Assembly (NCBI GenBank): GCA_965203465.1
Contig: CBDBCR010000003.1
Location: 928,263-992,262 of the forward strand
Length of the DNA stretch: 64,000 nucleotides
From: Nitrosopumilaceae archaeon
GTDB taxonomy: Archaea; Thermoproteota; Nitrososphaeria; Nitrososphaerales; Nitrosopumilaceae
Reading direction: 5' to 3'
The notes beneath the pieces are model-generated. The model did no database searches and had not been told where the DNA came from. It saw nothing but the letters and a program-made list of their open reading frames with translations. A program made the position numbers and the translations under genes. The first letter of the stretch is position 1. The number at the start of each line of letters is the position of its first letter. This document shows positions 1 to 63,694 of this stretch, in pieces.

Positions 1-156
1 TTCCCAGCAGGGCCATGGCGCCGGCGCCGACCGCCTCGGACGCCTTTGTGGACCAGCATCCCCCCGTGCGCCTGGCGTACAGGGTGGGGAACCTGACCGA
101 GCCGACGTCCGAGACGCACTTTACGAACCCCGTTCCCAGATCCAAGCCGACCTTCA
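1..156 (-). CDS. ParM/StbA-like actin ATPase, 5' part only (element B copy, runs off window)
   Basis: Closely similar to 58028-58183; translates VKVGLDLGTGFVKCVSD (actin phosphate-1 motif); TATA-like ATTTAAGG about 25 bp upstream of the GTG. Confidence 0.8.
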
Positions 157-225
157 CGGATGTAGTGGCCGGGCCGGATTTAAGGGGCAGGCAAGGCTGA
201 TATTTGCCGGCGCGGCACCACGGGC

Positions 226-13649: not shown

Positions 13650-14936
13650 TCACACGGTCGGATCCGATATCTTGCCCATGAACAGTATAAGGCCGCTCTG
13701 CTCGTCGTATATGGCGAACAGGAACGGGCGGTCGGCGTTGAAGTACGACAGGGGCGGGGGCGCTGACTCGCGCAGTGTTATAACCGTGACGGCCGCCGCT
13801 TCCGTCCCTTCTTCGTTCACCTTTACGTACGCGTCGTGCGTTGCCCTATCTACATACAGACTGTCGTTGTCGGAAAGATCGCCCAGATCTGCCCTGGAAG
13901 TGAAAACATCAGACATTCCCAGATCTATGAGGTCTGTCTTTAGGTCATACTTCGTCTTTGTCTCAAACTTTGGCAACGACACTACTACGTCTTGTGGTTC
14001 CAGCATCCCGATATACTCCGACATTTGCTTGGCGGACATTTCGGCCTCCAGTCTTTCTATGCCGCCCGTCTCGCTAGGCAGCACCGTCAGCATGGAGAGC
14101 CGGTCTCCCTCGTACGGCAGCCGGAGAATCTGGGCGCCCTCCGTGTCGGCATAGTCGAAGTTGTTCTTTACGTGCATAAATTCTGCGTCAATGCCATCCT
14201 CGTCTATCCAAAACTTGCCCTCTCTCGTGTCCTCTTTCGGAAACTGGACCAGCCAAGTCCCCTTGAAATAGACGGCGTTGGTGATCACCGCGGCGGTGGA
14301 GCCGTCGACGTCTCTGTCGTCGAGCACCTCTTGGATCTTGCCTCTGGTCTTTTCAGCCGCCCAGTCGTTCACCTTTTTCACGCCCGGCTTTCCTTCCCCC
14401 GCAAAGTCGACCGTCTCAACGGTCGCAAGGTACGTATTGCGCGCGATGTCAAGATACTGCTCGTACGGCTCGAACCAGTCTGCAAGCCACAGCGCGTTGG
14501 CCGTCTCGAGGACCGCGTGCGGGTCTTCGGCGTTTAGCGCGGCCATCATGTTCGCGGAGGCGGAGTGGCGTGCCGCGTCGTCGGGCTCGAACCCGAACAC
14601 GTCGAGCATCTGCCCGGCCGTCTCGCCGCGCGCCCCCTCGTACAGCACGGAAAAGGCCGTATAGACGCTGACCGGCGAGAAAAAGACGTTCTCGTCTGTC
14701 TCGTACACTTTTCTGTAAAAGTCAAAGGCGAATTCGTTGACAGACTCTGCAATCTGCGGGGGCACCTCGGGCGAGTCGAGGGCGGAGGCGTGCAGTATCT
14801 GGACGGGTTCCGGGGGGCCTCTTGCGGGATCCTGCGGGGTTCCTTGCGGCATCATCGCTGGCAACCCTGCCGAACCAAGCGCAAGGACGGCGGCCGACGC
14901 CGCGGCTGCGATCATAGCAGTGTAGATCCGCTTCAT
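13650..14936 (-). CDS. Secreted serpin (serine protease inhibitor)
   Basis: Signal peptide, NVFFSPVS, NAVYFKGTW, LPKF, hinge EEGTEAAAVT, FNADRPFLFAI..LFMGKI.DP. Confidence 0.97.
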   Translation of the reverse strand: MKRIYTAMIAAAASAAVLALGSAGLPAMMPQGTPQDPARGPPEPVQILHASALDSPEVPPQIAESVNEFAFDFYRKVYETDENVFFSPVSVYTAFSVLYEGARGETAGQMLDVFGFEPDDAARHSASANMMAALNAEDPHAVLETANALWLADWFEPYEQYLDIARNTYLATVETVDFAGEGKPGVKKVNDWAAEKTRGKIQEVLDDRDVDGSTAAVITNAVYFKGTWLVQFPKEDTREGKFWIDEDGIDAEFMHVKNNFDYADTEGAQILRLPYEGDRLSMLTVLPSETGGIERLEAEMSAKQMSEYIGMLEPQDVVVSLPKFETKTKYDLKTDLIDLGMSDVFTSRADLGDLSDNDSLYVDRATHDAYVKVNEEGTEAAAVTVITLRESAPPPLSYFNADRPFLFAIYDEQSGLILFMGKISDPTV

Positions 14937-19816: not shown

Positions 19817-19967
19817 GCCCTCGCCCCCTTCGGCTTCGTTAAAAGAATGCCGGTCGGACGCAGGCTAGTGGCAACAGGCCGTTCCGGACGCAGGCCCGTC
19901 CAGCGCGCCGCGGCCACGCCCGATCCGCGGCGCGGGCGTCTCTTGCCGGATCACGGCGCGCCCGTCG

Positions 19968-48900: not shown

Positions 48901-49065
48901 GACTATCGTGGACGGCTCCACGCCCTTCTTGACGAGTTCTGCCACCCTCCTGCTCACGGTCTCGGTTTTGCCCGATCCCGGGCATGCGACTATGCGCAGG
49001 TGGCCTCTGTCGTGATCGATCACCCGCTTTTGGATGTCCGACAGCTCGATTCTTCCGGGGCTCAC
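45982..49065 (-). CDS. UvrD/SF1A helicase fused to a PD-(D/E)xK nuclease and C-terminal SWIM finger
   Basis: CPGSGKT, DEYQD, VGDDDQ, KAKGLEF, YTAVTR; SYS..CP, GSID..IIDFK, C..C.F...C; CQC..CSH. Confidence 0.92.
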   Translation of the reverse strand: MSPGRIELSDIQKRVIDHDRGHLRIVACPGSGKTETVSRRVAELVKKGVEPSTIVAFTFTNKAADGLKSRIRTMLEEWGGRRDVGDMYVGTIDSFCLYMLKKIKPEYRSFEILDSARRAAFVDRWYNVLGLADLADLGKWRTMAKFCRSVDRAVTEGVDMSRISNDAFVSCYEAYAKKLREEKFFDFISIIATLLDVLERDPDALAQVGREVKHVVFDEYQDVNKLQETLLEFLSRGADSVCVVGDDDQNIFQWRGSDISHIRDFSDRHDRRSVTTENLGVNYRATDALVRVASRLAARNANRIPKNMRAYEHKGGFESGDIVRHHFATDTEEFDYVCDTMDCLRGTGFEEKGAVRPLSYRDMAVIVRTNEDAARIMRHMSGRGVPCVADSGTSVFERPVVSLALDCLMYAFERDGYQTDGVPDPAELEGRYDEAVPSGDARAFSEGLEAVKARAGAVLAKKPRDWLPNLGLQEFYHRIVNTMGAERGCLSEADMYNLAVLSAAISDYEYVYRSLRARQVGGLQWFISQFAENEYADPARGDPGQVDAVRVLTIWKAKGLEFPAVFVPSFDKRRRPNPSQVFIDDGLYDKARYDGGDEDDRRAYYTAVTRSQKYLFLTSAEKREIRVSQPLPKKSRKPSPFLDEMDGAEFSPAAPIDRPKTEGGAGTARADLIQSSYSELSMYDRCPHDYRLRHVMGFSAGVPAAFGYGTNIHNILNYLHAGFAQNGAVPDEAYIRKVFDRMFYLRFAPGAVSENMKEAGIKVVLNYMRLHGGDFERILETEKRFEFTVGGALISGSIDLLKRVGDDGASGIEIIDFKSDRRGDDGRYELDHSEQVRFYAYAVQESLGSRPAVATIHHLDTQAREPVDISGAALDATKKTIAEKVDMIRRRSFDPTPEDAKCRGCDFRALCPHKGFEVGTEFSTAKSEKRENDTVRPDDAQPTGELRPSYVSASVRRKAEELADKPIVRNPDGSHTVPSSSDSGKSYTVSADLKCQCKGFKKYPEWHPDFVPTCSHVEAVKIRSRRA

Positions 49066-50160: not shown

Positions 50161-50308
50161 GCCATGGGGCCACGGGCCATGGGGCCACGGGCCATGGGGC
50201 CACGGGCCATGGGGCCACGGGCCATGGGGCCACGGGCCATGGGGCCACGGGCCATGGGGCCACGGGCCATGGGGCCACGGGCCATGGGGCCACGGGCCAT
50301 GGGGCCAC
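50161..50308. repeat. Perfect 15-bp tandem repeat GCCATGGGGCCACGG (9 units + 13 bp)
   Basis: Read directly from the sequence. Confidence 0.97.
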
Positions 50309-50548
50309 ATGCGTGAGCAAATCCCAAGCCAGAGTAGGTGTCGGGCCGGGCGTCAGATGGACAAACTAAGTGCCGCGTACTTTGGTTTCCTGCCGCCGCG
50401 CCCGACTAGAATCTGGAGGCGATCTTGGCCGGATCCGGCCCGGGCGCCGGATCTGCCGGCCGGGGCGGGCCGGCTCCGTCGCGTACGGCCCGGAGGCACG
50501 AATTCGTGGGCGTGCTGGGGCCTTAAGTGGTACCCGCGCTCCCTCGCC

Positions 50549-50896
50549 GTGTCAGTCTACGACAGGAGGGTGCAGAAAAAGGAGAGCGGCGGCCTCATCG
50601 TGTCCGTCCCGTACCAGATAGCCTACGCGCTCGGCATAGGCAAGGGCACGACCGTCCGCTTCTGGTCGGTGAACGGCAAGGCCGTCTTCAAGCCGATCGC
50701 GCCAAGCGGCCTGACGGAGAAGGACGTTGCCGACATCGACGGGTACGAAGAGGCGGCCGGGGAGAGCCGGGGGCAAATCCGCCCACACACCCGTTGCCGG
50801 TGTCCGGACGGCGGAGAAAGACGCCCGGGGGTTCAGGAGGAACCACATCGGACGTCCGAGGCTGACAGTGGCCGGCCGTGGTGGACCTATTTTTAG
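50549..50896 (+). CDS. AbrB/MazE/SpoVT-like regulator, possibly with a degenerate 3' end
   Basis: RRVQKK..GLIVSVP..IAYALGIGKGTTVRF; CCTTAAG box at 50521. Confidence 0.75.
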   Translation: MSVYDRRVQKKESGGLIVSVPYQIAYALGIGKGTTVRFWSVNGKAVFKPIAPSGLTEKDVADIDGYEEAAGESRGQIRPHTRCRCPDGGERRPGVQEEPHRTSEADSGRPWWTYF

Positions 50897-51418
50897 CCAG
50901 GTCCCAAATCCACGGCCACGCGCGCTTTTGACTGCCTATAGCGTACGACGGAATCTGTACGTGGAGGCGCGCAAATTCAGGACGATGCCGAAAAGACAAA
51001 GTTGGACCTGCCAAGGCGGCCGGCCAAGCCGTACGTTCAGGCGGGCAAGACGCCGCTAGAGTACTGACCGGCGAGGCCCCGAACCGACAGCTTTGGCGGC
51101 CGGAGATTTTTCAGCCAAAAGCCCAGACGGCCGGGCCAGTCCAGCGGGGCGCGTACGTCTGGATCCGGGGCAAGCGGCCCGGTTCTGCTCGTCGGCCAGC
51201 TCTATCGGAGGTCTGCCGGGGCCTGACCGGCCCGGGCGTACGGATACGGAACGGGCCGGACGTGGGCCGCGATCTCGGGTTCGGCCGGCCGAGACGGGCC
51301 GGGACGTGGGCCGCCGGCGGGCGGCCCGCCAAGGTCGGGAAGATTCGGGGGAGCCGTGCTCTCCCCGTGTCTGTTCGTTCGTTTTGTGTGTAAATGCGAG
51401 GGCGGTGCGGCCGTGCCC

Positions 51419-51539
51419 AAAGGCGCCTGGAGGTACAGCAAAAAGGCGCCTTCAAGCACAGCAGAAAAGCGCCTGCAGGTACAGCAGGTCGTAGCAAAAG
51501 CGCCTGCAGGTACAGCAAAAGGCGCCTGCAGGCGCCTTT
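51419..51539. repeat. Iteron-like array of five ~22-bp units ending in a perfect 22-bp palindrome
   Basis: AAAAG(G)CGCCTGCAGGTACAGC variants; AAAGGCGCCTGCAGGCGCCTTT at 51518-51539. Confidence 0.85.
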
Positions 51540-51963
51540 CTGCTTTCAGTCGGGGCAGTTGACAGGCGCGGACAAGAACCGGACGCTGCCCAAAAGAACA
51601 TGGCGAGCGTGCCCGCCCGGTCAGGGACCCGGGATGGGGGGCCATAGACGAGACGGCCGCGGATGCGGGCCGCACGCCCGAATTCTGATCGAAGCGCCGA
51701 GATCCCGCGATCCAACGTTAGACGTGAGCCCAAGTCGGATTCATTTGTGCCATGGAGCCACGGCGTACGCGAATCCAAAGCCGGAAACGAAGTCGGGCGG
51801 CAGACAGGCCGGGTGCCGCGTACTTTGGTTTCCTGCCGTCGTGCCGTGCAGTCGTGCCGTACGCGAATCTAATCTGGAGGCGATACTGGGCCGGGGCCGG
51901 AGCAAGCGTTGTACGATCCTTGTCAGGCTAGGGTTCTGCCTGCCGGGGCGCCGGCTCTGCCGG

Positions 51964-52533
51964 CGTGTCCGGTGGCCGTAAAGTCCCCGCGTTCTGCTGG
52001 CGGATCTACTGGCCGTGTCCGGCTCGGGTTCTGCCTGCCCTGGCCATATGGGCGGGATCCGGCCCGGAGGGGCCGAGAAGATCCAAGAGCTGTAGAGATC
52101 ATGGCCGACTTTCGGGCTACGTTCGAACCGGCGGAAACCCGGATCGGGCGGCCGGTTCGTGGCAAGCTGGCCGGACAGATTTGCCTGCCGTCGTGTCCGG
52201 TGGCCGTAAAGTCCCCGCGTTCTGCTGGCGGATCTTCGGGCCGTGTCCGGGTCGGGCTCTGCCTGCCTTGGCTACTTGGGCGGGATCCGGCCCGGAGGGG
52301 CCGAGAAGATCCAAGAGCTGTAGAGATCATGGCCGACTTTCGGGCTACGTTCGAACCGGCGGAAACCCGGATCGGGCGGCCGGTTCGTGGCAAGCTGGCC
52401 GGACAGATTTGCCTGCCGTCGTGTCTGGCTGGACCGTAAAGTCCCCGCGTTCTGCTGGCGGATCTTCGGGCCGTGTCCGGGTCGGGCTCTGCCTGCCTTG
52501 GCTACTTGGGCGGGATCCGGCCCGGAGGGGCCG
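51964..52533. repeat. ~229-bp tandem repeat, about 2.5 copies
   Basis: GTAAAGTCCCCGCGTTCTGCTGGCGGATCT at 51978, 52206 and 52436. Confidence 0.92.
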
Positions 52534-52930
52534 GGCCCAGCTTGGGGGGCGGGGCCTCTGGGCCCCGCGGACGGTTTTGGGGTACAGGGGCCGCCGTCGG
52601 CTCCTTGGTACAGCTTTGGTTCGATCAGACAGGAATGCGAAGGGCCGAGCTGCCGCAGAATCCCGTCCGGGCGGCGATCTGCGTGGCACGGTCGGGTACG
52701 ATTTTTGGGTACGTCGTGGGCGACCGAAACGGAGACGAATGCGCTGTTGTGTATGTTTCTTGGGTACGTTGCGGGCGGCGAAAATGAGGACGAATGCGCC
52801 GTTGTGGGCGATTTATGGGCACGTTGGCACAGTGGGGACGGAGGCCCGGTCGTTCAGGTCGGCCGAACTGTGCCGTTGTGGGAGATTTCTGACACATTTG
52901 TGCCTTAAGTGGAAACCAGCCATTCTGGAC

Positions 52931-53329
52931 GTGAAAGCCTACGACAGAAAAGTGCAGAAAAAGGGGACCAGCGGGTTCTTCGTGGCCATCCCGTCCCCGA
53001 TAGCCTACGCGCTCGGCATAGAGAAGGGCAGCATCGTCCGGTTCTGGTCGGTCAACGGCAAGTTCATAGCCAAGCCGGTTTCGGTGGACGGCCTGACGAA
53101 AAAGGACCTGGCCGACGCCGACAAGTACGAAGAGGCCGTCAGGGGGATCCGCGAAGAACTGAGGGCGGGCACTATCGGAAAGCCCGCCGGGGCCGCCAGA
53201 GACGGAACCGGATCCGGGCCGCCCGCGGCCGAGCCGGATCATCTGGGCCAGGAGGATACCAGCCCGGACAGGAGGCGGGGGAGCCGGCCCCTGAGCAACG
53301 CCGAGAGGCTCAAGAGGCTCAGCATCTAG
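52931..53329 (+). CDS. AbrB/MazE/SpoVT-like regulator
   Basis: RKVQKKGTSGFFVAIPSPIAYALGIEKGSIVRF; paralogue of 50549-50896; CCTTAAG box ~25 bp upstream. Confidence 0.8.
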   Translation: MKAYDRKVQKKGTSGFFVAIPSPIAYALGIEKGSIVRFWSVNGKFIAKPVSVDGLTKKDLADADKYEEAVRGIREELRAGTIGKPAGAARDGTGSGPPAAEPDHLGQEDTSPDRRRGSRPLSNAERLKRLSI

Positions 53330-56300
53330 ACCACCGTCACCCGGACGGACTTTTTTTCCGCCTCGTCCAGGTCCTCGAAGACCTTCAGGACGGCCCTGCT
53401 CTTGGACCAGACGTGGCACATGCCGAACCCCATGCCCCTCCACTTGGTCATGTTGTACCTGACGTGCTCTGGGTGGCTCCGCACCTCGCTGACCGATTCG
53501 ATCTCGATGCTGACCGGCGTCTTGGTCTCGTAGTCGTAGGCGGCAAGGTCGGTCCTGTCCACCCCCCTGCGGACCGTCTGGTCGGCCACGGCCACGAAGA
53601 ACCCCTGCTTGAGGTACGCCTCGAACGCCTGGCGCGCCACGCCCTCCACGTCGTCGGCAGACCCCACGGGGGCCACGTCGGGCTCAAAGTACGACTTGCG
53701 GGCGCCCGGCGACAGCTGGTAGGGGGCGGCCCTGCCGCCGTCGGTCCGCCTCAAAATCCCCTTGGCCACCATGGCCTTGAGGACGGGCAGCAGCTCGGCC
53801 CTGTTTGCCGCCTTCATCTTCATGGCTATCTCGACCTGCTGCATGGGCTTTTCGGAGAGCATCAGCATTATCCTCCATTCGGTCCGGGAAGGCACCTCCA
53901 CGTCCAGCGACGCCTTCCACTGGACGGGGCCGGCGGCGCGGACAGCCCCCTCGACCACGCCGCTTCCGTACTTTGCAAGCTGTGAGGAGACGAACTGCTC
54001 GAACATGCCCGCCGAGACCAGCCCGGGCGGGGGGCTCAGCCAGAACTGGGAAGGCGGCGGCTGCTCTTTGCCGGGCGGCGCCTTTTCCCGCACCGTCCAG
54101 TGGAAATATTCCTGGCTGGCAAGCTGGTGCTGGAGCGGCTTTTGGAACTGGGGATCCCAGATCTGCGATATCCGGGCCGCGTCCCTGCCGTTGACGCGCC
54201 CCACGAACTGGGTGCCCGAATTTCCGGTGATTATGCCCAGCTGCCTGTCGCTGATCTGCTCGGTGGTCTGGTGTGAGAGAACCAAGCCGAGGCCCAGCGA
54301 GCGGGCCTGCTCCAGCATCAGCTGCAGAACCTGCAGGTCCTTTACTATCTGGAACTCGTCCAAGGCCAATACCACCTGGGTGCGGTCGCGCTCCGGTGTC
54401 CGGTCGGCCCGCTCCTGTATGGTAAACCACAGCTTCAGGATGAACGCCTGCATGGCCAGCGGCTGGACGTGCTGGGGCATGTTGAGCGGCGATATGCGGA
54501 CCACCGTGCAGGAGCCGGGCTTTACCAGCTCGTCGAAATCTACGGTCCCGCGCCGCACAGAAAACATCCTCTTGAGGACGGGGTCGGTGGCAAACTGCTC
54601 CACGCGGTTCAGGAGGGGCACGAAGGCGTCCCCTTTCAGGGAAGATATGCTCTCCAGTGCCTGGGCCATCTCGGGGTCCGGCTCGCCGTACTCGCGGATT
54701 ACGTCGGCCAGCGCGTCCTTGCCGCCCTGCAGCCTCAATATGATGCCGTGCATGTCCAAGAAGGTCGGGGCGTCGTGCTTCATGTACATGTAGAACAAAA
54801 GAGCGCGAAAGATCCTCTCCATCTGGACGTAGCTGGCAGACTGCTGGTACCACTCTTCTATAGTCTTCATGAAATACCCCACGTATCTGGACACGACCTC
54901 CTCGCGCTCCGATTCCTTGTGGGGCGGCAGCTCGAGCGGGTTTATCGAAAAGCGCGTCTCCTGCGGGTCCAGATAGTGGACACGGCCCTCCTCCAGGGAG
55001 CCCGGCAGACACTGCTGGACGAACTTGCGGGAGTCGTCCCCTTTCGGATCCACGTAAATGAACGCGTTGGGAAACTGCCCCGAGTCGTTCCACGCCTCGA
55101 GGTGCTTGGCGAGCAGCCGGATCAGGGAAGTCTTGCCCGAGCCCGAGCCGCCGACGGCGTACAGGTGGGTGGCAAAGTCCGAAGGCGACACCACGGCCGC
55201 CTCGGCGTCCTTGGACCTGACGGTCAGGCCCCACTCGGGGGCGCCTGCGCCGGGAACGAACGAGCCGAGCGGGCCGCCCTCCTTTTCGGACGGCTTTGTC
55301 GGCATGGCCACGCCGCGGGTGGTGTCTATGTTGGGCGTGGACGGGGACGGCAGATGCACGAACAGCGGCATCTCCGGGAGGGTCAGCATCAAAAAGGGCA
55401 GGGGCCGCCTGTCCTTGTAGCCGAACAGGCCGCGCCCGCAATACCCGGACAGCGCCTTTTCCAAATGCTGCTCGGGGTCGGGCAGCAGGCGGCGCGGGAA
55501 CATCTCCAGGCGGCTCAGTTTCTGCCCGCCCGCCCGTATCTCCGATTTTTTGGATCCGTGCCTCCACCTCTCCGCGTCGCGGTACCGGAACTTGGTCAGG
55601 TGCTCGTGGCCCGAGCGCACGCTCTCTACGGGCAGGGCCTCGATCTCGTCGAAATTGAGGTCGATCTCGTCGTCGCTGACCATCAGCCCGCGCACGGCCA
55701 TCAGCACGTGGGAGCCCTGCATCTTGAGGGTGGCGTGCTTTTGCAGGCCGGCGTAGTTGTTGTCGAAGTCCCTGCCCGCCTCCGGGTGATCGTGCGGCTT
55801 TTTGTCGGGGTGCATCAGTATCTCGGTGTTGGACAGGTAGTTGCCCCGGCGTATCTCGCGTACCTTGCCGTCCAGCCGGGCCACGTGACGCCTCAGGAAG
55901 GGGTTGAACGAGTACGACTTGAAGACGAACTGTATCCAGGCCTTGCTTGAAAGCTGGACGGTGCTGGCTATCTGGGACATTATCTGGTGGGCGCGCGCCT
56001 TGTCAAAGACGGTCGCGTAGTGGCCGTGGTAGGCGCCCACGTCGAACACCCGGTACTTGCCGGCCGGGTCGAACCAGGACGGCGCGGTTTCCGCCTCGGA
56101 AAACGCCGCGCTGGGGTACATGTTGCGGAACGCCTGCCTGTATCCGGCCATGTCGGCTTTTTCGCAGGCCAGCACCATCCGCAGCTGCTTTTCGGCGCCG
56201 TCCCACCACACCTCGTAGCTTCTCACGCCCGGGCAGGCCAGCCCGCCGGCCGCCTCGACCGCCTCTTTCTTGTCCGTCTCCACGGGGACCGACACCGAGC

Positions 56301-56457
56301 AGGCCGCTACGTCGGCCGGCCCGGGCAGGAACTTTCTGGCCCCGTCCAGGGCCCCTTTTGGCTTGCGCCCGTTGGCCAGCCGCCATTTTCCGCCCACGGC
56401 GGCAGGCGCCGGGCCGCATAAAAGGGGCGCCATAAGGGAAATAGGCGTAGAACCCAT
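53326..56457 (-). CDS. VirD4/TraG/HerA-superfamily ATPase with C-terminal wHTH and PD-(D/E)xK-like domain
   Basis: GGSGSGKT, VDPKGD, FSINPL, LDEFQ, ARSLGL.LVLSHQ; RTDL..IEIE at the C-terminus; start uncertain. Confidence 0.85.
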   Translation of the reverse strand: MGSTPISLMAPLLCGPAPAAVGGKWRLANGRKPKGALDGARKFLPGPADVAACSVSVPVETDKKEAVEAAGGLACPGVRSYEVWWDGAEKQLRMVLACEKADMAGYRQAFRNMYPSAAFSEAETAPSWFDPAGKYRVFDVGAYHGHYATVFDKARAHQIMSQIASTVQLSSKAWIQFVFKSYSFNPFLRRHVARLDGKVREIRRGNYLSNTEILMHPDKKPHDHPEAGRDFDNNYAGLQKHATLKMQGSHVLMAVRGLMVSDDEIDLNFDEIEALPVESVRSGHEHLTKFRYRDAERWRHGSKKSEIRAGGQKLSRLEMFPRRLLPDPEQHLEKALSGYCGRGLFGYKDRRPLPFLMLTLPEMPLFVHLPSPSTPNIDTTRGVAMPTKPSEKEGGPLGSFVPGAGAPEWGLTVRSKDAEAAVVSPSDFATHLYAVGGSGSGKTSLIRLLAKHLEAWNDSGQFPNAFIYVDPKGDDSRKFVQQCLPGSLEEGRVHYLDPQETRFSINPLELPPHKESEREEVVSRYVGYFMKTIEEWYQQSASYVQMERIFRALLFYMYMKHDAPTFLDMHGIILRLQGGKDALADVIREYGEPDPEMAQALESISSLKGDAFVPLLNRVEQFATDPVLKRMFSVRRGTVDFDELVKPGSCTVVRISPLNMPQHVQPLAMQAFILKLWFTIQERADRTPERDRTQVVLALDEFQIVKDLQVLQLMLEQARSLGLGLVLSHQTTEQISDRQLGIITGNSGTQFVGRVNGRDAARISQIWDPQFQKPLQHQLASQEYFHWTVREKAPPGKEQPPPSQFWLSPPPGLVSAGMFEQFVSSQLAKYGSGVVEGAVRAAGPVQWKASLDVEVPSRTEWRIMLMLSEKPMQQVEIAMKMKAANRAELLPVLKAMVAKGILRRTDGGRAAPYQLSPGARKSYFEPDVAPVGSADDVEGVARQAFEAYLKQGFFVAVADQTVRRGVDRTDLAAYDYETKTPVSIEIESVSEVRSHPEHVRYNMTKWRGMGFGMCHVWSKSRAVLKVFEDLDEAEKKSVRVTVV

Positions 56458-56496
56458 TGGTGGCGCTGGTAGTTCAACGCCACCTTCCAGCCCCGA

Positions 56497-57226
56497 TCAT
56501 CCACGCTCTTGGTTGCCTTGGCTCGAGATTGTATTTTTTATTTCGTTCAAAACTCCCATCACAGAAACATGTTGTGCATCAAAATACAACACTTGGTTGT
56601 TTAAATTGTGATGTGGATCTACAGTATTTCCGAGATCAATTGAAGGCTTCTCTATGGCTTGAATTCCTCCTCTTTTCTGGAATTCTGAGTTCCATTTATT
56701 GGCAAATTGTTTAGGAACTGCATAACTCGGAAGTTTTTCAATTATTTCTTTTGCATAATACATGTGATATTCTAATGATTTTTCATGGATACCCATTCCA
56801 GTTTCTAAATTAGAAACTTTGTGTAAGTGATTATATGCACTTAACGCATATTGTTGTAACAGAAGATATTCCGACAACAAAATGTAGGGGGAATTTCTGT
56901 ACAAAGACATAGATTCGATTTCCTGAAACATAAAGCTTCTAAATTGGCAGATTGCATCATAAGTAGAAGAATTGAGCTCTATTACAGTAGGGGCTTTGTA
57001 ACGGGGGTGAGTCTCCCATAGTTCGAATATGTTTTTTTTTGAAACTGTCTATTCTAAGTATATGTGAAAACAGACTACTATACACAACTTTGGCGTTTTT
57101 GTCAAAAACCTTATCTGCTTTTGTTTTCCTTAAAACGCTTACAATTACACCCGATATCACACCTCCCACTATTGAAAATAATAATGTGGTGATCCAAGTT
57201 CCAAAGGGCCAACTTGCTAAATCCAT
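56497..57226 (-). pseudogene. AT-rich membrane-anchored protein gene split at an A9 tract
   Basis: N-terminal TM helix; removing one base from the T9 run at 57032-57040 fuses the two ORFs into ~242 aa. Confidence 0.7.
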
Positions 57227-57361
57227 GGGCTTACTCCGCTCTATTAGATCCTCCACGATCAAAGGTTGCCATCGCTTTATGTCGACAACACCATGTAATA
57301 ATTGTTAGCCTCTCAAAATCAACGATAATAGGAGAGTTGGCAGTATTTCACGAAAGACGCC

Positions 57362-58183
57362 TCAGGCCGCCAGCTTGTACAGCCCGCGCGCATTGCTCAT
57401 CACTGGGTCGGACGGCACCACGATCTTGCGATCCTTGAGGCGCGCTTCCAGCTCGTCGCGCACGCCCGGCATCAGCAGCCCGCCGCCCGACAGCGCCAGG
57501 GGGTACCCGTACTGGCCGGCCACGTCCCAGATTTCTGCGGCTAGGTTCTCGGCCAGCACGCGCGCGTACTTTTTGCAGACGTCCTTGTGCGCCTCCAGCG
57601 CGGACGGATCCAGGTGGGCGAACCTGCCCACCTTTTTGGTCACAAAGTCAGAGGCCCAGGCAGAGCTTGCCCCGTCGATTACCTCCGAGCCGTCGACGGC
57701 GACTATCTCGGTGGTGCCCTGCCCTATCGAGACCACCACGCCCGTATCCATGTCAAGGTCCACCAGCGTGCCGCACGCCTGGGCCACCACGCTGCACGAG
57801 TCCGCGTCCAGCGTGCGCTTTACCAGCTTTGCGACGAACTCGCGCTGGTCGAACGCGTGGTACGGCAGGCCCACCACCATGCTGAGTTGCTCGTTGCCGG
57901 GCGCCGGCGCCTTGGCTAGGCACCTGATCTGGGCCAGCGCCTCGCGCACGAGCATCTCGACCTGCTTTTGGTGGCGCGGATCCGGCCTGCCCTTCGATAT
58001 GGGCCCGACCGCCGCGGTCCCCGTGGTTCCCAGCAGGGCCAGAGCGCCGGAGCCGACAGCCTCGGATGCCTTTGTGGACCAGCATCCCCCCGTGCGCCTG
58101 GCGTACAGGGTGGGGAACCTGACCGAACCCACGTCCGAGACGCACTTTACGAACCCCGTCCCCAGATCCAGTCCGACCTTCAC
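57362..58183 (-). CDS. ParM/StbA-like actin-fold ATPase
   Basis: GLDLGTGFVK, VVGLP, VVAQACG, SIGQGTTE, LSGGG, DPVMSNARG; GTG 58183 with TATA-like box at 58204-58211. Confidence 0.85.
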   Translation of the reverse strand: MKVGLDLGTGFVKCVSDVGSVRFPTLYARRTGGCWSTKASEAVGSGALALLGTTGTAAVGPISKGRPDPRHQKQVEMLVREALAQIRCLAKAPAPGNEQLSMVVGLPYHAFDQREFVAKLVKRTLDADSCSVVAQACGTLVDLDMDTGVVVSIGQGTTEIVAVDGSEVIDGASSAWASDFVTKKVGRFAHLDPSALEAHKDVCKKYARVLAENLAAEIWDVAGQYGYPLALSGGGLLMPGVRDELEARLKDRKIVVPSDPVMSNARGLYKLAA

Positions 58184-58203
58184 GGGCGCGGTGGACGGGC
58201 CGC

Positions 58204-58644
58204 ATTTAAGGCGCCCCGGAGCCCGCCGGGCGGCCGGACGGGAAGGTGGAATGCGGGCGATGTGCCCAACAGTCGGGACGCCAGCGTCCCGGCTGTGGGG
58301 TATATGCTCTCCTACAGCCCGGCGGCCGCCCGAAGTGGGGCCGCACGCGGCCGGGGAGGTCTGCCGGGCGCATAAAAGGGGGTCAGGTTTTGCCCGCGAT
58401 GTGACCCTTAACGGGGCCCCTTTGCGCCCCGTTAAGCGGCACATCCCGGGAGGCAGGGCCGGGCGGGAAAAGGCGGGGGGCCTAGTCCGGGCCGCCGCGC
58501 CGGGAACCCGAGGGGGCCGACTTTAGGAGGCGCCGCGCGCACGCGACGAGCCGCTTGTTCGAATGGTCTGCGAACGGCTCCGCGCAGGAGGGGCAGGATT
58601 TCACGCCGCCGGAGCCCGGTTAGCATAAAAGGGCGGTCGCGCGC
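58204..58644. promoter_or_regulatory. Conserved non-coding region between integrase and parM-like gene
   Basis: Homologous to ~960-1374; holds the 66-bp hairpin (58254-58319) and repeated GCATAAAAGG boxes. Confidence 0.6.
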
Positions 58645-59898
58645 TCACGGCCTGTCCGGCTCCAGCCGGCCCATGATCTCCTCGACCATCTCGTACACCC
58701 TGCCGCGCAGCTCGCGCTCGCCGGCGGCCTCTTTTTTGAGCGACTTTATCCGCTTCCTGCCGGCCTCCTCCCTCCTGCGCATGGCGGTCAGCTCGTCTAT
58801 CTTGGCCTGCTTTGCTACCGTCTCGGCCCTGAGCCGCTCCTCGTCCGACACGGTCAGCAGCGGTATGGCCTTTCTGTACTCGGGGAACCGCTCAAAGTCC
58901 TCCTCGTTGTACCGCTCGTAGTGGGATTCGAGGCCCACCTTGTGGCCCATCATGTCCTCCTTGTCCAGATAGTCAACCTTGGCCCGCCTCAGCATGGTGT
59001 TGAAGTACTTGCGGAACCCGTGGTCGAGGCTCACCTCGTGCCTCCTGCGCCTGTCCCCGGGCGGGCGGAGGCCGACGCGCGCGACCAGCTTGGACACCCT
59101 GGCCTTTACGCTGTTGGAGCCGAGCCGGACCGGCTCGTCGTACCGCACCGAGACAAGCAGCGGATCGGAGCCGCGCGGCTCCCTGCCGAACCTGTGCTTC
59201 CACTCCTTGCGGTACAGGCCCACTGCACCGTACGCCTCGGGCGTCACGAACGTCCAGTACTCCTCGGGGTACCCGCGGTACACCCGCAGCGCGGCCCCCT
59301 CCGGCGGCTCGCCCACCGGCACCAGGTCCTCCCAGCAAAAGTAGTCCCACGCCCCGACCCGGAAGCCGCCCGACGAGAACAGCAGCACTATGACCTTGTC
59401 GGTCAAACCGGTAGAGCCGGCCAGCATGGCCTTTAGCTCCTCGCGCGTGTACGCGCGGTCGCGGCTCTTCACGGGCGGCGGCATCATCTTGTCGATGGCC
59501 TTCCACGATATCCCGATCTCGGAGGCGGCCAGCAGCGCCTTGACCGGCTTTATCTTGTTGGGGACCGTGTTGGGGTTCATCTGCCCCTTTTCGACCAAGT
59601 CCTTGAGGCCCTTTACGTAGCTGCGCACGGCCGCCTTGGCCGCGTCGGGGTTGGCCCTGGCCAGCCCCACGAACGCCTCGCACATGTCCTCGATGCCCCT
59701 CGAGCGCGGCGGGCCCCCCGCGTACCGCTCAAAGACCCCGTCGGGGACCGCGGCCATGAACGTCGCCAGGTTGCCCCCGTACGACCTGCGGGTCTCGGCG
59801 CTGCCCAGCGAGGCCATCATGTCCGAGTAGGCTTCCCCCTCCAGGGAGGCGATGTCTATCTCCACCGATCTTTTCGGACTCTGTTCCTGATAAGGCAC
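58645..59898 (-). CDS. Tyrosine recombinase/integrase (element A)
   Basis: R, HxxR, H and Y motifs; GTG lies 10 bp after the tRNA discriminator base. Confidence 0.93.
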   Translation of the reverse strand: MPYQEQSPKRSVEIDIASLEGEAYSDMMASLGSAETRRSYGGNLATFMAAVPDGVFERYAGGPPRSRGIEDMCEAFVGLARANPDAAKAAVRSYVKGLKDLVEKGQMNPNTVPNKIKPVKALLAASEIGISWKAIDKMMPPPVKSRDRAYTREELKAMLAGSTGLTDKVIVLLFSSGGFRVGAWDYFCWEDLVPVGEPPEGAALRVYRGYPEEYWTFVTPEAYGAVGLYRKEWKHRFGREPRGSDPLLVSVRYDEPVRLGSNSVKARVSKLVARVGLRPPGDRRRRHEVSLDHGFRKYFNTMLRRAKVDYLDKEDMMGHKVGLESHYERYNEEDFERFPEYRKAIPLLTVSDEERLRAETVAKQAKIDELTAMRRREEAGRKRIKSLKKEAAGERELRGRVYEMVEEIMGRLEPDRP

Positions 59899-59908
59899 TA
59901 AATGTGGG

Positions 59909-59983
59909 CGGGTCTAGAGGGATTCGAACCCCCGACAGCCGGATTAAGAGTCCGGTGCTCTGACCTGGCTGAGCCATAGACCC
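59909..59983 (-). tRNA. tRNA-Lys (anticodon CTT)
   Basis: GGGTCTA/TAGACCC acceptor stem, CCGGA-CTCTTAA-TCCGG anticodon arm, GGTTCGAATCC T-loop; no intron, CCA not encoded. Confidence 0.95.
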
Positions 59984-60010
59984 GCGCGCCGGGTACGGCG
60001 GGGGCCGTTA

Positions 60011-60613
60011 TTAAACTTCGGCCGGCGCGACTTTTTGCTGCTCGTAGCGCTCCAAGATGGCCGTCAGCGCCGTGGAGACGGGCACGTTCATGCGCTTTTT
60101 CTCGGCCAGCAACTTTTGGTACGCCTCCAGTGTAATGTACACCGGTATCGACCCGTTGCCCTCGAGCAGGCCGCGCACCTTGTAGAGGGCCGTCTCCATG
60201 CCCCTTTCGGCGGACTTTGCGAACTTTGCCTTGTCCATGATGGAGCCGAGCGGCCCGAACGGCATCTCGTACTCTACGGTCATGGTCACGCGCGTCTTGC
60301 GGGCTCCGAGCTCCTCGAAGAGGGTGGTGATGCGCCACTTTTTGAACGGGCCGTCTATCTGCACCGCCGATATGCGCTCCTCGCGCTCGAACTCGGTCGT
60401 CTCGCAGTCCCACTCTATGCGCTTGCCGCCAAAGTCGCCTATGATGCGGAACGTGGTCCCCACGCCCATCCCCTCCTTGATGTCCATCGGTATGACGGTC
60501 ATGCCGACGCCCTTGTCGCTCATCTGATCCGAGACATGCTCGGGGCGCGCAAAGTAGGTAAAGACTGTGGATATCGGAGATTTTATCTCGAGCGACCTGC
60601 TGACCGTTGTCAA
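60011..60613 (-). CDS. SRPBCC (START-like) family protein
   Basis: VSRSLEIKSP..VF.Y, GMGVGTTF, GPFKKW, TRVTMTVEY..PFGPLG. Confidence 0.85.
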   Translation of the reverse strand: MTTVSRSLEIKSPISTVFTYFARPEHVSDQMSDKGVGMTVIPMDIKEGMGVGTTFRIIGDFGGKRIEWDCETTEFEREERISAVQIDGPFKKWRITTLFEELGARKTRVTMTVEYEMPFGPLGSIMDKAKFAKSAERGMETALYKVRGLLEGNGSIPVYITLEAYQKLLAEKKRMNVPVSTALTAILERYEQQKVAPAEV

Positions 60614-60704
60614 CGCCCGCGTTCCCGGCGGCGTTGATTTAAAGCTTTGGCGGGGTTAGGTCTGCCTAAGGTTGCAATATATTTCCGGCCTCCCGCGGGG
60701 AACC

Positions 60705-61232
60705 GTGAAGCGTGCCGCGTTTCTGGCGCTGGCCCTGCTGGCGCTGCAGCCGGCGTGGGGCCACTCGCTGTTCAACTCCGCCGAGCAGACCGTCGGCGGG
60801 TACCGGATGCAGGTGGCCACCCTGCCCGAGTTCCCCCAAGTGGGCGAGCCCTCGCAGATACTGTTCCGCCTCACCGACGAGAGCCTCGAGGAGGTGAGCA
60901 GGTTCTCCATGAGCATCCGCATATTCTACAACGGCGAGCAGGTGCAGGCGCTGCGGCCCCAGTCCATAGACGGCGGGCACTGGGAGATGCAGTACGTCTT
61001 CGAGCGCGGCGGCAACCACATATTCAGGGTGGACGCCCAGCCGCCCGACGGGCGCACCCTCCAGTACACCTTCAACATGAGCACCCAGAGCCCGTTCGGC
61101 TACATATTCTTCGTGGCCATAACGGCGGGGGCCGGCATCTTCGGCGTCGTGATCTCGTACGTGTACATGCCCAGGATCAGGTCTTGGCTGTCAGCTTTTG
61201 CCCGTCCAAGCGGAAGGCGGCCAGGACGGTGA
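60705..61232 (+). CDS. Exported, C-terminally anchored protein (possible copper/oxidase assembly factor)
   Basis: Signal peptide ending AWG-H, beta-rich middle, C-terminal TM helix; next to the cox cluster. Confidence 0.65.
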   Translation: MKRAAFLALALLALQPAWGHSLFNSAEQTVGGYRMQVATLPEFPQVGEPSQILFRLTDESLEEVSRFSMSIRIFYNGEQVQALRPQSIDGGHWEMQYVFERGGNHIFRVDAQPPDGRTLQYTFNMSTQSPFGYIFFVAITAGAGIFGVVISYVYMPRIRSWLSAFARPSGRRPGR

Positions 61233-61620
61233 GCAGCACGGTGGCGAACAGCAGTATCCCGATGCCCAGGTGCACGGCCACGAGCACCGCGTGAAGTTTC
61301 AGGTCTATGACCAGGGCGCCCAGCGTTATCTGGGTGACGACGAATATCGAGGCCAGGGCGCTGGATGCCTTCATCCGCCTGCCGGCGCCGCGGGCCATCC
61401 ACGCGCCCACCGTCATGGCCACCACGAGCGCGCCGGTCGTGGCAGCCACTGCCCTGTGTATGTACTCTATGAGGTACTCTTCGCTGGGCACCAGCCCGTC
61501 GGGGCACAGGGGCCACTCGGGGCAGGTCAGGCCCAGGCCGGCCGCCGAGATGTACCCGCCTATGAACATGAGCGAGTAGAGCACCACCAACGTAGATAGG
61601 GAGACCCACTTTAGGATCAT
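61177..61620 (-). CDS. ctaA: Heme A synthase, short archaeal CtaA/COX15 type
   Basis: GLTCPEWPLC, EYIHR, QITLGA, VAVH. Confidence 0.9.
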   Translation of the reverse strand: MILKWVSLSTLVVLYSLMFIGGYISAAGLGLTCPEWPLCPDGLVPSEEYLIEYIHRAVAATTGALVVAMTVGAWMARGAGRRMKASSALASIFVVTQITLGALVIDLKLHAVLVAVHLGIGILLFATVLLTVLAAFRLDGQKLTAKT

Positions 61621-61621
61621 G

Positions 61622-62161
61622 TCACTCCACTATGAACGAGCCCACCATTCCCTGCAGTGCGTGGCCCGGCACCGTGCAGATGTAGTAGTATTCGCCCGGT
61701 TCGCCGGCTATGAACGAGACGCTGCCGGACTCGCCGCCCTTGAGCGGGTTGGACGCCGAGCCTATGTCCGAGCCCCACAGCGTGGCAGCAAAGTCGGCCG
61801 GATCGGCGGTGACGCCGAACGCGTGGAAGGTCACGCCGGTGTTGGTCACCGAGACTATCACCTCGTCGCCCGAGGCGACCACCAAGTCGGGGTTGCTGCC
61901 CGGCTCGTCGGGCAGGCCGTTGAACCCCAAGGTGATAAAGTCCGAAGATTCCACAAAGTCCAAGTCGAACGAGACGGTGTCGCCGGTCAGCGGGCCGGAG
62001 GGGGCAGCCGCGACGGCCCCGCCTGTGGCAACCGGCGGAAGCTCCGATATCCAGTAGTCCCAGAGCCCGAAGAATATGCCGCCGCCGACCACGCATATGC
62101 CCAGCATTATCGCCATCATCTTGCCCACGCGGGCGGGGCTGGTAAGGTACGGCTCCATCAA
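61622..62161 (-). CDS. Membrane-anchored blue-copper cupredoxin
   Basis: H..., YICTVPGHALQGM type-1 copper ligands; N-terminal TM. Confidence 0.92.
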   Translation of the reverse strand: MMEPYLTSPARVGKMMAIMLGICVVGGGIFFGLWDYWISELPPVATGGAVAAAPSGPLTGDTVSFDLDFVESSDFITLGFNGLPDEPGSNPDLVVASGDEVIVSVTNTGVTFHAFGVTADPADFAATLWGSDIGSASNPLKGGESGSVSFIAGEPGEYYYICTVPGHALQGMVGSFIVE

Positions 62162-62167
62162 GACACC

Positions 62168-63694
62168 TCAGTGGTGCGGGGTCTTGGCCTGGTACGGGTA
62201 ATAGTACCTGCCACCCACCCCGAACGGGTCGTCCATGTCAGCCGGCTTGCCGCGGCCCGAACTGTGTATGAGGTTGGCCAGGAATATGGCCATGCTGACG
62301 CCGATGAGCATCGCCCCTATCGTGGCTATCTGGTTCATCGCTATCCATTCGGGTATCGGCGGATAGTCGTATATGCGGCGCGGCATGCCGAACAGCCCGA
62401 GCACGTGCTGCGTAAAGAACACCATGACGGTCCCGACGAACGAGAGGATAAAGTGGACGTACCCCAGCTTTTCCTTGTACATGCGCCCGGTCACGTACGG
62501 GAACATGTAGTAAACGTACCCGATGGAGCCGAACGCGATGGTCCCCATGACGAAGAGGTGGAAGTGGCCCACGACCCAGTACGTGTCGTGCGTGGTAAAG
62601 TCGAGCGGCATGGCGCTGTTGACGACCCCGCCGGCGCCGGCCGAAAAGAACAGCGCGATGCCCCCGACTGCCCACATCATCGGGGTGGCGAAGCGTATGC
62701 GGCCGTTCCACATGGTGGCAAGAAAGTTGAACACGTGCATGGCAGAGGCCGGCACGGCGGCCAGCGTCCCGACCATGAAGACGGTCTTTTCGGTGAACGA
62801 CATGCCCGTCGCGTACATGTGGTGGGCCCACGACGAAAAGCCGACTATGGACAAGAGCACGAACGCAAAGATCCCCGAGCTGTGGCTGTATATGGGCTTG
62901 CGCGAAAAGCGCGGTATGATCTCGTACATCATGCCGATGGCCGGTATCACCAGGACGTACACCTCGGGGTGGAACGTGAACCAGAACAGGTGCGCGTAGG
63001 CTATCGGGTCGCCGCCCATGGCCGGGTTGAAGAACCCCGAGACGCCGAGCCTGTCAGTGAGCAGCATCAGCAGCGCGGCTGCGAAGGTCGGCAGGGCCAC
63101 CAGTATTATCAGCGAGGAGGAGAGGAACGACCAGGCCAGCAGCGGCACCTGCCCCAGCGACATGTCGGGGTGCTTGCACTTCATTATGGTGACCACGAAG
63201 TTGATGGATCCCAGTATCGAAGAGACCCCCAGTATCTTGAGGCCGAATATCCACATGTCGGCCGCCGGGCCCGGCGCGCTGATTATCGAATACGGCGGGG
63301 TGGCGTACCAGGTAAAGTCGGCAAAACCCAGCCATATGAGGGCGCCTGCCGGCGGTATCATCCAGAACGCGATGGCGTTGAGCTTTGGGTACGCCATGTC
63401 CTTGTAGCGGACCATGATGGGCACGAAGTAGTTGCCGACCGCCGAGGCGAACGGTATGATGAACAGGAATATCAGGGTCGTCCCGTGCACCGTGAATATG
63501 CGGTTGAACGTCATCGAATCGGCGATGAACTGCGAGCCGGGAAGGAACAGCTCCAGCCGTATGGCCAGGGCCAGCGAGCCTCCCATGAACAGGAACGCCA
63601 GCGACGTTATCAGGTACAGCAGGCCCACGTCGGTGTGGTGGGTCGAGAACATGATCTGCCAGATCGGCCGAGGCTTGGCCAGCTCCAGCGTCAT
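62168..63694 (-). CDS. coxA: Heme-copper oxidase subunit I
   Basis: TVHG, WFTFHPEVY, WAHH, GHFH; start moved to ATG 63694. Confidence 0.97.
   Translation of the reverse strand: MTLELAKPRPIWQIMFSTHHTDVGLLYLITSLAFLFMGGSLALAIRLELFLPGSQFIADSMTFNRIFTVHGTTLIFLFIIPFASAVGNYFVPIMVRYKDMAYPKLNAIAFWMIPPAGALIWLGFADFTWYATPPYSIISAPGPAADMWIFGLKILGVSSILGSINFVVTIMKCKHPDMSLGQVPLLAWSFLSSSLIILVALPTFAAALLMLLTDRLGVSGFFNPAMGGDPIAYAHLFWFTFHPEVYVLVIPAIGMMYEIIPRFSRKPIYSHSSGIFAFVLLSIVGFSSWAHHMYATGMSFTEKTVFMVGTLAAVPASAMHVFNFLATMWNGRIRFATPMMWAVGGIALFFSAGAGGVVNSAMPLDFTTHDTYWVVGHFHLFVMGTIAFGSIGYVYYMFPYVTGRMYKEKLGYVHFILSFVGTVMVFFTQHVLGLFGMPRRIYDYPPIPEWIAMNQIATIGAMLIGVSMAIFLANLIHSSGRGKPADMDDPFGVGGRYYYPYQAKTPHH

Follow-up and report, generated by a model that had tools for sequence, protein, structure and literature searches.

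The DNA analysed here is a stretch of 64,000 nucleotides, hereafter the window, from the genome of a Nitrosopumilaceae archaeon (2.26 Mb, 65% GC, four contigs), of which it forms the final 64 kb of contig C3 (CBDBCR010000003.1, positions 928,263 to 992,262). Here we show that the window carries a conserved, selected and tRNA-linked backbone of integrative elements, made up of genes for a tyrosine integrase, an actin-fold protein and a VirD4-class ATPase (53326-59898), an AbrB-like gene and tandem repeat arrays. We take this interval, with a little more belief than doubt, to be the conserved backbone of tRNA-targeting integrative elements of Nitrosopumilaceae, to encode a ParMRC-like partition system with an AbrB-fold adaptor, and to be an integrative mobilisable derivative of a thaumarchaeal family of integrative conjugative elements (ICEs). 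The element itself is probably integrative, mobilisable and related to the thaumarchaeal ICEs. An earlier note on this DNA had named the same parts, and all of them were recovered: the integrase, actin and ATPase genes on the minus strand, the AbrB-like genes and the arrays.

A selected, tRNA-linked backbone and its integration site

Five copies of the module were found in the genome by tblastn, namely A and B, C and D at C3:331528-338286 and C1:670730-676567, and E at C1:211682-218120, and the open reading frames (ORFs) are intact in four of the five. Copies C and D are about 81-83% identical to A in the integrase, 58% in the actin and 66-67% in the ATPase. Copy E adjoins tRNA-Ala(GGC); its ATPase gene is broken, its integrase is a different one (30% identical), and no att repeat of at least 12 nt was found at that tRNA within 128 kb. 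Among close copies, which have diverged to dS values of 0.17-0.30, the ratio of nonsynonymous to synonymous substitution rates (dN/dS) came to 0.13 (integrase), 0.06-0.09 (actin) and 0.07 (ATPase). Ratios so low at such dS indicate purifying selection in elements that have been evolving separately.

The backbone is likewise conserved beyond this genome. A scan of one genome per species gave 63 actin loci, all in archaeal records, with 60 titles naming Nitrososphaerota taxa (Nitrosopumilus, Cenarchaeum, Nitrosotenuis, Nitrosotalea, Nitrosarchaeum, Nitrosopumilaceae, Thaumarchaeota, Nitrososphaerota); two of the remaining titles read 'archaeon' and one, a weak match, is from Bathyarchaeia. These related loci are kin and not independent samples, and the gene calls made in them are rough ORF calls. 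Of the 25 loci with an actin above 50% identity, 18 have the ATPase gene next after it, and in 10 of 17 integrase-bearing loci the integrase is immediately preceded, in the same orientation, by a tRNA gene (Val, Asp, Ser, Thr, His or Ala); the co-occurrence at tRNAs that the earlier note had set as a check is thus borne out. The AbrB gene stands convergent behind the ATPase in 15 loci and beside the actin in three loci that have no ATPase (18 linked loci). The actin-ATPase-AbrB triad has its constant site at the integrase-proximal end and was never found among the variable cargo. When evenly sampled genomes of the phylum were checked, the actin was present in 8 of 301 (this one, 6 of 43 others of its family and 1 of 17 of another family) and is thus an accessory gene. 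All five copies in this genome lie within modules, so that the actin is not the housekeeping protein whose possibility had been raised at the outset.

The integration target is a tRNA-Lys(CTT) gene at 59905-59984 on the minus strand (ARAGORN; Rfam tRNA, 70 bits), the 3' end of which forms an 11-bp att core (59905-59915, TGGGCGGGTCT on the plus strand). One further exact occurrence of the core is present in the window, at 2635-2645, directly upstream of a second integrase gene (1375-2628) whose product is 95% identical to the first. Since this repeat of the core is exact and the identity between the upstream regions of the two integrases stops exactly after its 11 bp, the layout is tRNA, att, element A (2646-59904, 57 kb), att and element B in tandem, the second core being the junction of the two elements, with B to its left. 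Taken alone, such an 11-mer is about as frequent by chance, as 29 of 100 shuffles gave at least three one-mismatch matches, and the att assignment therefore rests on context and not on count. Short att sites and tandem arrays have been reported for thaumarchaeal elements in the available text of PMC6563490. The order of integrase, spacer and actin recurs in element B, as had been claimed, with the start of its actin gene within window 1-185. The left end of element B was not located, since the exact att core does not occur a third time; C3:890203 and C3:919233, where the core is nearly matched, are tentative candidates for this end. Element A has only 49.8-59.9 kb in common with B, and its remainder is cargo.

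The integrase gene (417 aa; 58645-59898, minus strand) has a GTG start 6 nt from the 3' end of the tRNA. Its catalytic residues and family matches identify the product as a putative tyrosine recombinase: R180, R296 and H319 are invariant in the family, the Tyr of an 'ExxY' motif is conserved, a profile of 11 family members matched archaeal XerA structures at 1e-4 and 1e-3, and NCBIfam XerA matched at 2.5e-4. The match to Pfam Phage_integrase was weak (E 0.004) and under the Pfam cutoff. Matches to TAL effectors, also returned by the profile search, proved to be artefacts: the alignment contained an N-terminal ORF extension that is spurious and repetitive. With a start so close to the tRNA, there is no room for a promoter of the integrase's own when the element is integrated; it may be transcribed by read-through from the tRNA, or from the far end of the element only after circularisation. 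The gap concerned (59899-59904) is about as small in several relatives (6 loci). N-terminal fragments of the integrase were seen at C3:402947-403420 (161 aa) and C3:102411-102782 (124 aa), the former having a 140-nt upstream flank in common with the intact copy at C1:670730; they may be remnants or parts of long att duplications. The integrase and actin genes are separated by a spacer of 0.46 kb (58184-58644, minus strand) in which no coding was seen, which shares 86-90% identity with its counterparts in copies D and E and which matched no Rfam family. It had been described as structured; the spacer is indeed there, but its folding is marginal (z = -2.22; 3 of 100 shuffles fold as well).

The actin-fold protein, its candidate adaptor and the repeat arrays

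The actin-fold ATPase, which the earlier note called ParM-like, is a protein of 273 aa encoded at 57362-58183 on the minus strand, with a GTG start at 58183. It was called within a 360-aa ORF, of which all the 112 homologues (about 275 aa) span about 75%; because all 112 begin at about residue 88, the first 87 codons of the ORF belong to the spacer. Pfam matches were to ALP_N (2.9e-5) and MreB_Mbl (1e-4). The AlphaFold model had a mean predicted local distance difference test (pLDDT) value of 93.6, its best Foldseek matches were MreB/Mbl, actin and MamK (E 1e-15 to 1e-13), and a profile search of the PDB gave Arp2 and MreB at about 1e-10. When the model was aligned against structural representatives, Z scores of 26.5 for MreB, 25.7 for BeeR, 24.2 for a chromosomal ParM, 24.1 for actin, 23.7 for crenactin, 23.2 for Ta0583, 21.1 for R1 ParM, 20.2 for FtsA and 19.7 for PilM were obtained. 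As modelled, the protein is a filament-type actin, and its fold gives no assignment to ParM. The best PHROGs match was a 'partition protein' family (4.3e-13). Residues D6, K13, Q135, E159 and a GGG motif (G233-235) are invariant across the family, where the phosphate-1 and adenosine motifs and the counterpart of Gln137 are likewise unchanged, which is consistent with an actin-fold nucleoside triphosphatase with nucleotide-binding motifs. A viral origin was considered and set aside: the IMG/VR scan gave a single, weak relative of the actin, and capsid families were unmatched in the PHROGs scan.

The AbrB-fold gene (copy 1, about 52892-53329, start uncertain) lies on the plus strand, convergent with the ATPase gene and overlapping its stop, and its product ends in ...AERLKRLSI. 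A paralogue (copy 2, about 50507-50896, plus strand), 76% identical to copy 1, is without this C-terminal peptide. The profile of the family matched AbrB/MazE/SpoVT structures at 1.6e-4, and in its members an acidic linker of variable sequence joins this domain to an extreme C-terminus that is conserved as S(R/K)LEKLR(I/M)K. The fold is that of AbrB and not the ribbon-helix-helix of ParR; the protein is therefore not a member of the ParR family. We predicted complexes of the actin with the last 50 residues of AbrB copy 1, along with three controls. The pair reached scores of 0.84, 0.83 and 0.85, which express the model's own confidence, and the best control 0.17; of solved complexes, 58 of 80 reach the score mark used, and of mismatched pairs 2 of 110 do so. 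At least 80% of the contacts agreed between runs, with a pLDDT of 52-53 for the partner, and AbrB residues 133-145 were placed in contact with actin residues 103, 131-146, 165-168 and 270-273. The contacted residues presumably form the walls of the IA/IIA intersubdomain cleft, which in ParM is the binding site of ParR. The C-terminal peptide of the AbrB-fold protein is thus predicted to dock in the actin cleft, and the model points to an adjacent DNA-binding adaptor whose C-terminal peptide would bind the actin. In a distant actin clade, the gene directly after the actin encodes a 94-aa protein of comparable architecture, in which a linker connects conserved N- and C-termini.

Four sets of repeats lie around the AbrB-like genes. 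A 55-bp repeat (2.3 units, 52686-52826) stands upstream of copy 1, at 66-206 bp from its AbrB domain; a 228-bp repeat (2.5 units, 96% matches, 51957-52533) is common to copy B only; four direct iterons of 22-23 bp, of the AAAGGCGCC-N6-ACAGCA type, and one inverted iteron occupy 51418-51544 and are conserved in copies A, B, C and D; and a perfect tandem array of a 15-bp unit (GCCATGGGGCCACGG, 9.9 units) lies at 50161-50308. The iterons are of one type, with four to six in each copy, and have been kept across A to D despite protein identities of 58-67%. Among related loci, a tandem array was present within 150 bp on either side of the AbrB ORF start in 16 of 17, as compared to 21 of 618 control windows, which were mostly coding. 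The periods of these arrays (22, 23, 33, 44, 54 and 55 bp) cluster at 22-23 bp and its multiples, while the units differ between loci. By their sequence and position these would be centromere-like tandem repeats beside the adaptor gene. The proposal of the earlier note that the AbrB protein is an adaptor and the arrays its cis sites has thus gained support in silico, from the conserved peptide, the complex score and the arrays at 16 of 17 loci. The copy number of the 15-bp array is 10, 4, 20 and 33 in the four elements, and the perfect units suggest either ongoing expansion and contraction or a functional cis site. At related loci, perfect 19-bp or 13-bp arrays were seen at the same relative place.

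The VirD4/TraG-class ATPase, its conjugative relatives and the cargo

The third backbone gene encodes a soluble P-loop ATPase of the VirD4/TraG class (1,043 aa; 53326-56457, minus strand), in which a VirB4-like N-terminal domain (about 21-390) precedes the motor (Walker A 436-443, Walker B 696-702) and a C-terminus (about 845-1043) made up of a winged helix and a conserved acidic, His-rich domain. Pfam TrwB_AAD_bind was matched at 23.8 bits (curated cutoff 20.5), TraG-D_C was matched as well, and families of type IV coupling proteins were matched in all 19 scanned homologues that bear the ATPase. Among plasmids, its closest matches were to TraG-like genes carried by conjugative plasmids of Sulfolobus (E down to 3e-40), and on sequence similarity the ATPase is a homologue of their TraG/VirD4-like protein. 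A profile search of 1.84 billion representatives returned 5,514 matches, and both the 1-390 part and the 395-1036 part (motor and C-terminus) also exist as separate proteins. The model of residues 21-400 (pLDDT 89.1) aligned with TrwK/VirB4 (7o42_A) at Z 11.9 and a root-mean-square deviation of 3.8 over 233 residues, the next best Z being 6.7, and TrwK chains were the top Foldseek matches (E 2e-3 to 9e-3), which argues for a VirB4-like fold of the N-terminal domain. In sequence, the ATPase of the window did not match the VirB4 models CagE_TrbE_VirB, AAA_10 and TIGR00929; some homologues match TIGR00929 at 1e-6 to 1e-12, far under its cutoff, and similarity to the VirB4-like protein of the same genome was seen at Walker A only. 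The last 200 residues start with a winged helix of MarR/ArsR type (E 5e-5) and end in a conserved D/E/H-rich domain without a recognised fold.

Three further assignments for the ATPase were tried and not adopted. A relaxase-like 'HxDxxPHxH' motif of the N-terminal domain is present in close homologues and unconserved in distant ones. A nuclease or Replic_Relax reading of the C-terminal half rested on Atlas leads (0.80) and on a restriction endonuclease model at 0.015 in 1 of 12 members, and is kept as a lead only. DUF8128, suggested for the N-terminal domain (Atlas 0.93), was absent from the Pfam copy used and from the literature.

The neighbourhood of related loci ties the module to ICEs. The actin gene is immediately preceded, in 6 of the close loci, by genes for a TFIIB-like protein, two proteins without a known family (c3 and c9) and a prepilin peptidase, and a seven-transmembrane (7-TM) protein, c10, is encoded further upstream in 4 of the 6; the TFIIB-c3-c9-peptidase string also precedes the actin in many loci of the distant clade. 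TFIIB, prepilin peptidase and VirD4/TraG-like ATPases belong to the ICE gene set given for Thaumarchaeota in the available text of PMC6563490. The present genome has a cluster of conjugation or pilus type at C1:520-533 kb with a VirB4-like ATPase, a FlaI/PilT-like (T2SSE) ATPase, a 7-TM protein, TFIIB, c3/c9-type genes and a prepilin peptidase; no actin and no ATPase of the 1,043-aa family were found in it. Within C1:520014-536500, the VirB4-like protein measures 642 aa and the 7-TM protein 559 aa, a methyltransferase belongs to the cluster as well, and a ParB_N protein is encoded nearby. VirB4 and mating-pair genes were not seen in the 57 kb of element A; some genes of the cluster adjoin the module in the 6 related loci, and a VirB4-like ATPase is encoded in trans within the cluster itself. 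Among 53 window translations scanned with Pfam and 12 scanned with PHROGs, some small ORFs lying outside the scan, there was no match to a capsid, Rep, MCM, primase, HUH relaxase or mating-pair family. The statement in the earlier note that mating-pair genes are missing holds for the 57 kb scanned, but not for the genome as a whole.

We compared the module with four known systems. A catalogue of 2019 (Krupovic et al., PMC6563490) already covers integrated elements of Thaumarchaeota that encode VirD4/TraG-like ATPases, TFIIB and prepilin peptidase, and as the ATPase also has a homologue in Sulfolobus conjugative plasmids, the word 'undescribed' in the earlier note was too strong. Element A resembles these ICEs and cryptic integrated elements (available texts of PMC6563490 and of Abby et al. 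2018, PMC5797428) in phylum, tRNA 3' targets, short att sites and tandem arrays. Unlike the ICEs, as set out in the former, it has a VirD4-class ATPase only, with no VirB4, VirB6, pilin, TFIIB or ParB-like gene; in that scheme, element A would therefore be a cryptic integrated element. The words actin, ParM and MreB do not occur in the main text of PMC6563490, whose supplements may list such genes, nor do ParM and MreB in that of PMC5797428. Crenarchaeal conjugative plasmids (pSOG2, pKEF9, pTC, pAH1 and others) encode a TraG/VirD4-like protein that is 23-30% identical over ATPase residues 356-1006, with weak similarity in the N-terminal domain. That of pSOG2 is of similar size (1,094 aa), and a small convergent gene overlaps its 3' end too; no similarity to the AbrB profile was found for this small gene. 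The plasmids differ in having their own VirB4/TrbE and membrane genes and in having no actin annotated near the TraG-like gene, and no relaxase is known for them according to the available text of PMC6563490.

The other two systems are bacterial. The srpMRC locus provides SXT/R391 ICEs with a type II partition system of the ParMRC kind (PMC4489591). It shares with the present module an actin-type ATPase, a DNA-binding adaptor and centromere-like repeats on an element that is normally integrated, as well as the proposed role of stabilising the excised circle. In contrast to srpMRC, for which that text reports function, the adaptor here has an AbrB fold and a convergent gene, a large ATPase gene separates actin and adaptor, the actin has 273 aa and no phosphate-2 Asp, and the role is proposed from sequence and models. 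In Streptomyces plasmids, TraB is an FtsK-like motor whose C-terminus reads direct repeats at clt and which pumps unprocessed double-stranded DNA with no relaxase (PMC4447253, accessible part). A single motor with C-terminal recognition of the element's repeats, which would be the case here, and no relaxase are common to both; unlike TraB, which that source places in the FtsK family as a membrane-anchored protein, the present motor is soluble and of the VirD4/VirB4 class. By analogy, srpMRC and TraB/clt appear to be the closest functional precedents.

The cargo of element A includes three Dcm/Vsr/EcoRII-like sets, PvuII-like and BsuBI/PstI-like restriction-modification genes, a HerA-NurA pair, a GHKL ATPase, a UvrD-PD-(D/E)xK helicase-nuclease, many insertion sequence (IS) elements, a serpin with a 1,627-aa subtilase and a 1,730-aa HYR-repeat protein. 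The serpin (428 aa), the S8 subtilase with its P-domain and cadherin-like repeats, and the HYR/fn3 surface protein stand beside one another at 13650-25160 and are eukaryote-like cargo within a mobile element. The fusion of a UvrD-like helicase to a PD-(D/E)xK (Cas4-like) nuclease (45982-49065) adjoins the conserved core and has a 73%-identical copy at C3:376853-379208; it could serve element replication or repair, or defence. A 706-aa protein (25133-27253), whose sole match was a WING-49 domain, is encoded by a gene with 88% DNA identity between element A and the tRNA-Ala element (C1:220798-223032) and may be a shared accessory or backbone gene. Between the ATPase and actin genes, a 144-aa ORF (56497-56931, minus strand) lies on a low-GC insert present only in copy A and outside the conserved backbone. 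It matched no family in the Pfam and PHROGs scans and has a single relative in the genome, at C1:74762; contigs from sequencing runs join 56428 to 57359 without the insert. The chromosomal flank of the element (60306-62984, cytochrome oxidase region) was matched by contigs from runs labelled sponge metagenome and marine metagenome, with 0-5 letter differences in one run (X4) and 3-38 in the other (X6). Because of these matching contigs, we conclude that the organism or a close relative occurs in sponge or marine samples.

Proposed mechanism, alternatives and meaning

The anatomy of the tRNA-Lys site suggests that the tyrosine integrase would recombine the 11-bp core with which the tRNA gene ends. 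Once the circle is excised, its tandem iterons would be bound by the AbrB-fold protein at or near the gene for that protein, whose C-terminal peptide, as predicted in silico, would dock in the IA/IIA cleft of the actin. The iterons would then act as a centromere from which the circle is partitioned, and a ParMRC-like (type II) segregation complex of this kind would prevent loss of the circle, as srpMRC does for SXT/R391 ICEs. The ATPase may recognise the DNA of the element through its C-terminal winged helix and then pump it, possibly in double-stranded form and with no relaxase involved, in the manner of TraB at the clt site of Streptomyces plasmids. The mating apparatus could be supplied in trans from the C1:520-533 kb cluster, or in cis in the fuller relatives.

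Several observations weigh against this reading of the module as a mobilisable element with its own partition system. By fold, the actin is no nearer to ParM than to MreB or actin, and no match to it was found among 72,556 plasmids. The first Asp of its phosphate-2 motif is replaced by Ser, Asn or Ala ('sIGqGTTE' aligned to 'DIGGGTTE' of MreB), and as this Asp is absent, ATP hydrolysis may differ. The complex score could be inflated by the model's memory of solved peptides in actin clefts. The gene order is not that of parC-parM-parR, since the ATPase lies between actin and adaptor and the adaptor is convergent, and in copies A and B the conserved iterons are some 0.9-1.4 kb from the adjacent AbrB gene. 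The ATPase reached only one of the Pfam cutoffs for type IV coupling proteins, while NCBIfam models stayed far under theirs (VirD4-like CD1115, 3e-6), and it showed no membrane anchor, the top hydropathy over 19 residues being 1.23 in a doubtful N-terminal extension. No replication protein of element A was identified in the Pfam and PHROGs scans of the window, and no excised or circular form was seen, none of 20 whole contigs being circular.

The actin might instead be a structural or assembly part of a transfer or pilus apparatus, in a role like that of PilM or FtsA, with the AbrB protein as an autoregulating repressor and the repeats as its operators. We consider this unlikely. It would agree with the fuller elements, where the actin gene stands between a prepilin peptidase and a conjugation-type ATPase in one gene string, with the fold of PilM (Z 19.7) and FtsA (Z 20.2), and with repeats at a regulator's own promoter, which are typical of autoregulation too. 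PilM, moreover, binds a terminal peptide of a partner. Yet MreB (26.5), BeeR (25.7) and a chromosomal ParM (24.2) outscore both PilM and FtsA, the best family match is a phage/plasmid 'partition protein', the actin-AbrB pair persists in 3 loci without the ATPase, and the five copies in this genome keep the actin without an adjacent pilus gene and under purifying selection. The same selection bears on whether the copies are decaying ICE remnants, fixed in the chromosome, immobile, and kept for their cargo or by chance. The broken ATPase of copy E, the integrase fragments at C3:402947 and C3:102411, the left end of element B that was not found, a cargo riddled with IS elements and 57 kb free of recognised mating-pair or replication genes would all fit such decay. 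With dN/dS of 0.06-0.13 for three backbone genes at dS of 0.17-0.30, four copies with intact ORFs, exact tandem att cores and conserved cis arrays, we nevertheless judge it quite improbable.

Least probable of all, and in our opinion very much so, is that actin, ATPase and AbrB protein form a defence or DNA-repair system carried as cargo, in which the ATPase is a motor of HerA/FtsK type as in MADS-like systems. In its favour, the element abounds in restriction-modification and HerA-NurA genes, loci for defence and toxin-antitoxin systems often encode AbrB/MazE folds, and the ATPase matches the PADLOC model mad8 at 1.6e-13. That model is generic, however, since the cargo HerA of the window matches it at 6.3e-10; the triad is always integrase-proximal and not in the variable cargo, in relatives it adjoins TFIIB, prepilin-peptidase and 7-TM genes, and its nearest plasmid homologues are conjugation genes. 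There is also a bolder form of our preferred reading, in which a self-contained set of an AbrB-fold adaptor, the 22-bp iterons to which it binds and a minimal 273-aa actin, caught by the adaptor's C-terminal peptide, makes up the first actin-driven DNA partition system of archaea, coupled to a soluble, relaxase-free motor for double-stranded DNA with VirB4 and VirD4 features and a winged-helix reader, the whole being the long-missing DNA-handling core of thaumarchaeal conjugation. This we put forward tentatively, with more doubt than confidence.

No actin-type partition system of a plasmid or element in archaea was found in the literature searched, and to our knowledge none has been described. 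The pairing of an actin machine for DNA segregation with a conjugation-type DNA pump on archaeal elements likewise appears undescribed in that literature. The functions of archaeal actins are largely unknown, and the present cassette of an actin, an adaptor with a defined docking peptide and defined repeats is compact and can be tested. We know of no genetic tools for ammonia-oxidising archaea, for which such maintenance modules could seed vectors. The module is, further, a concrete candidate for DNA handling in relaxase-less archaeal conjugation, and it suggests that the defence-laden islands of Nitrosopumilaceae spread as mobilisable partners of ICEs.

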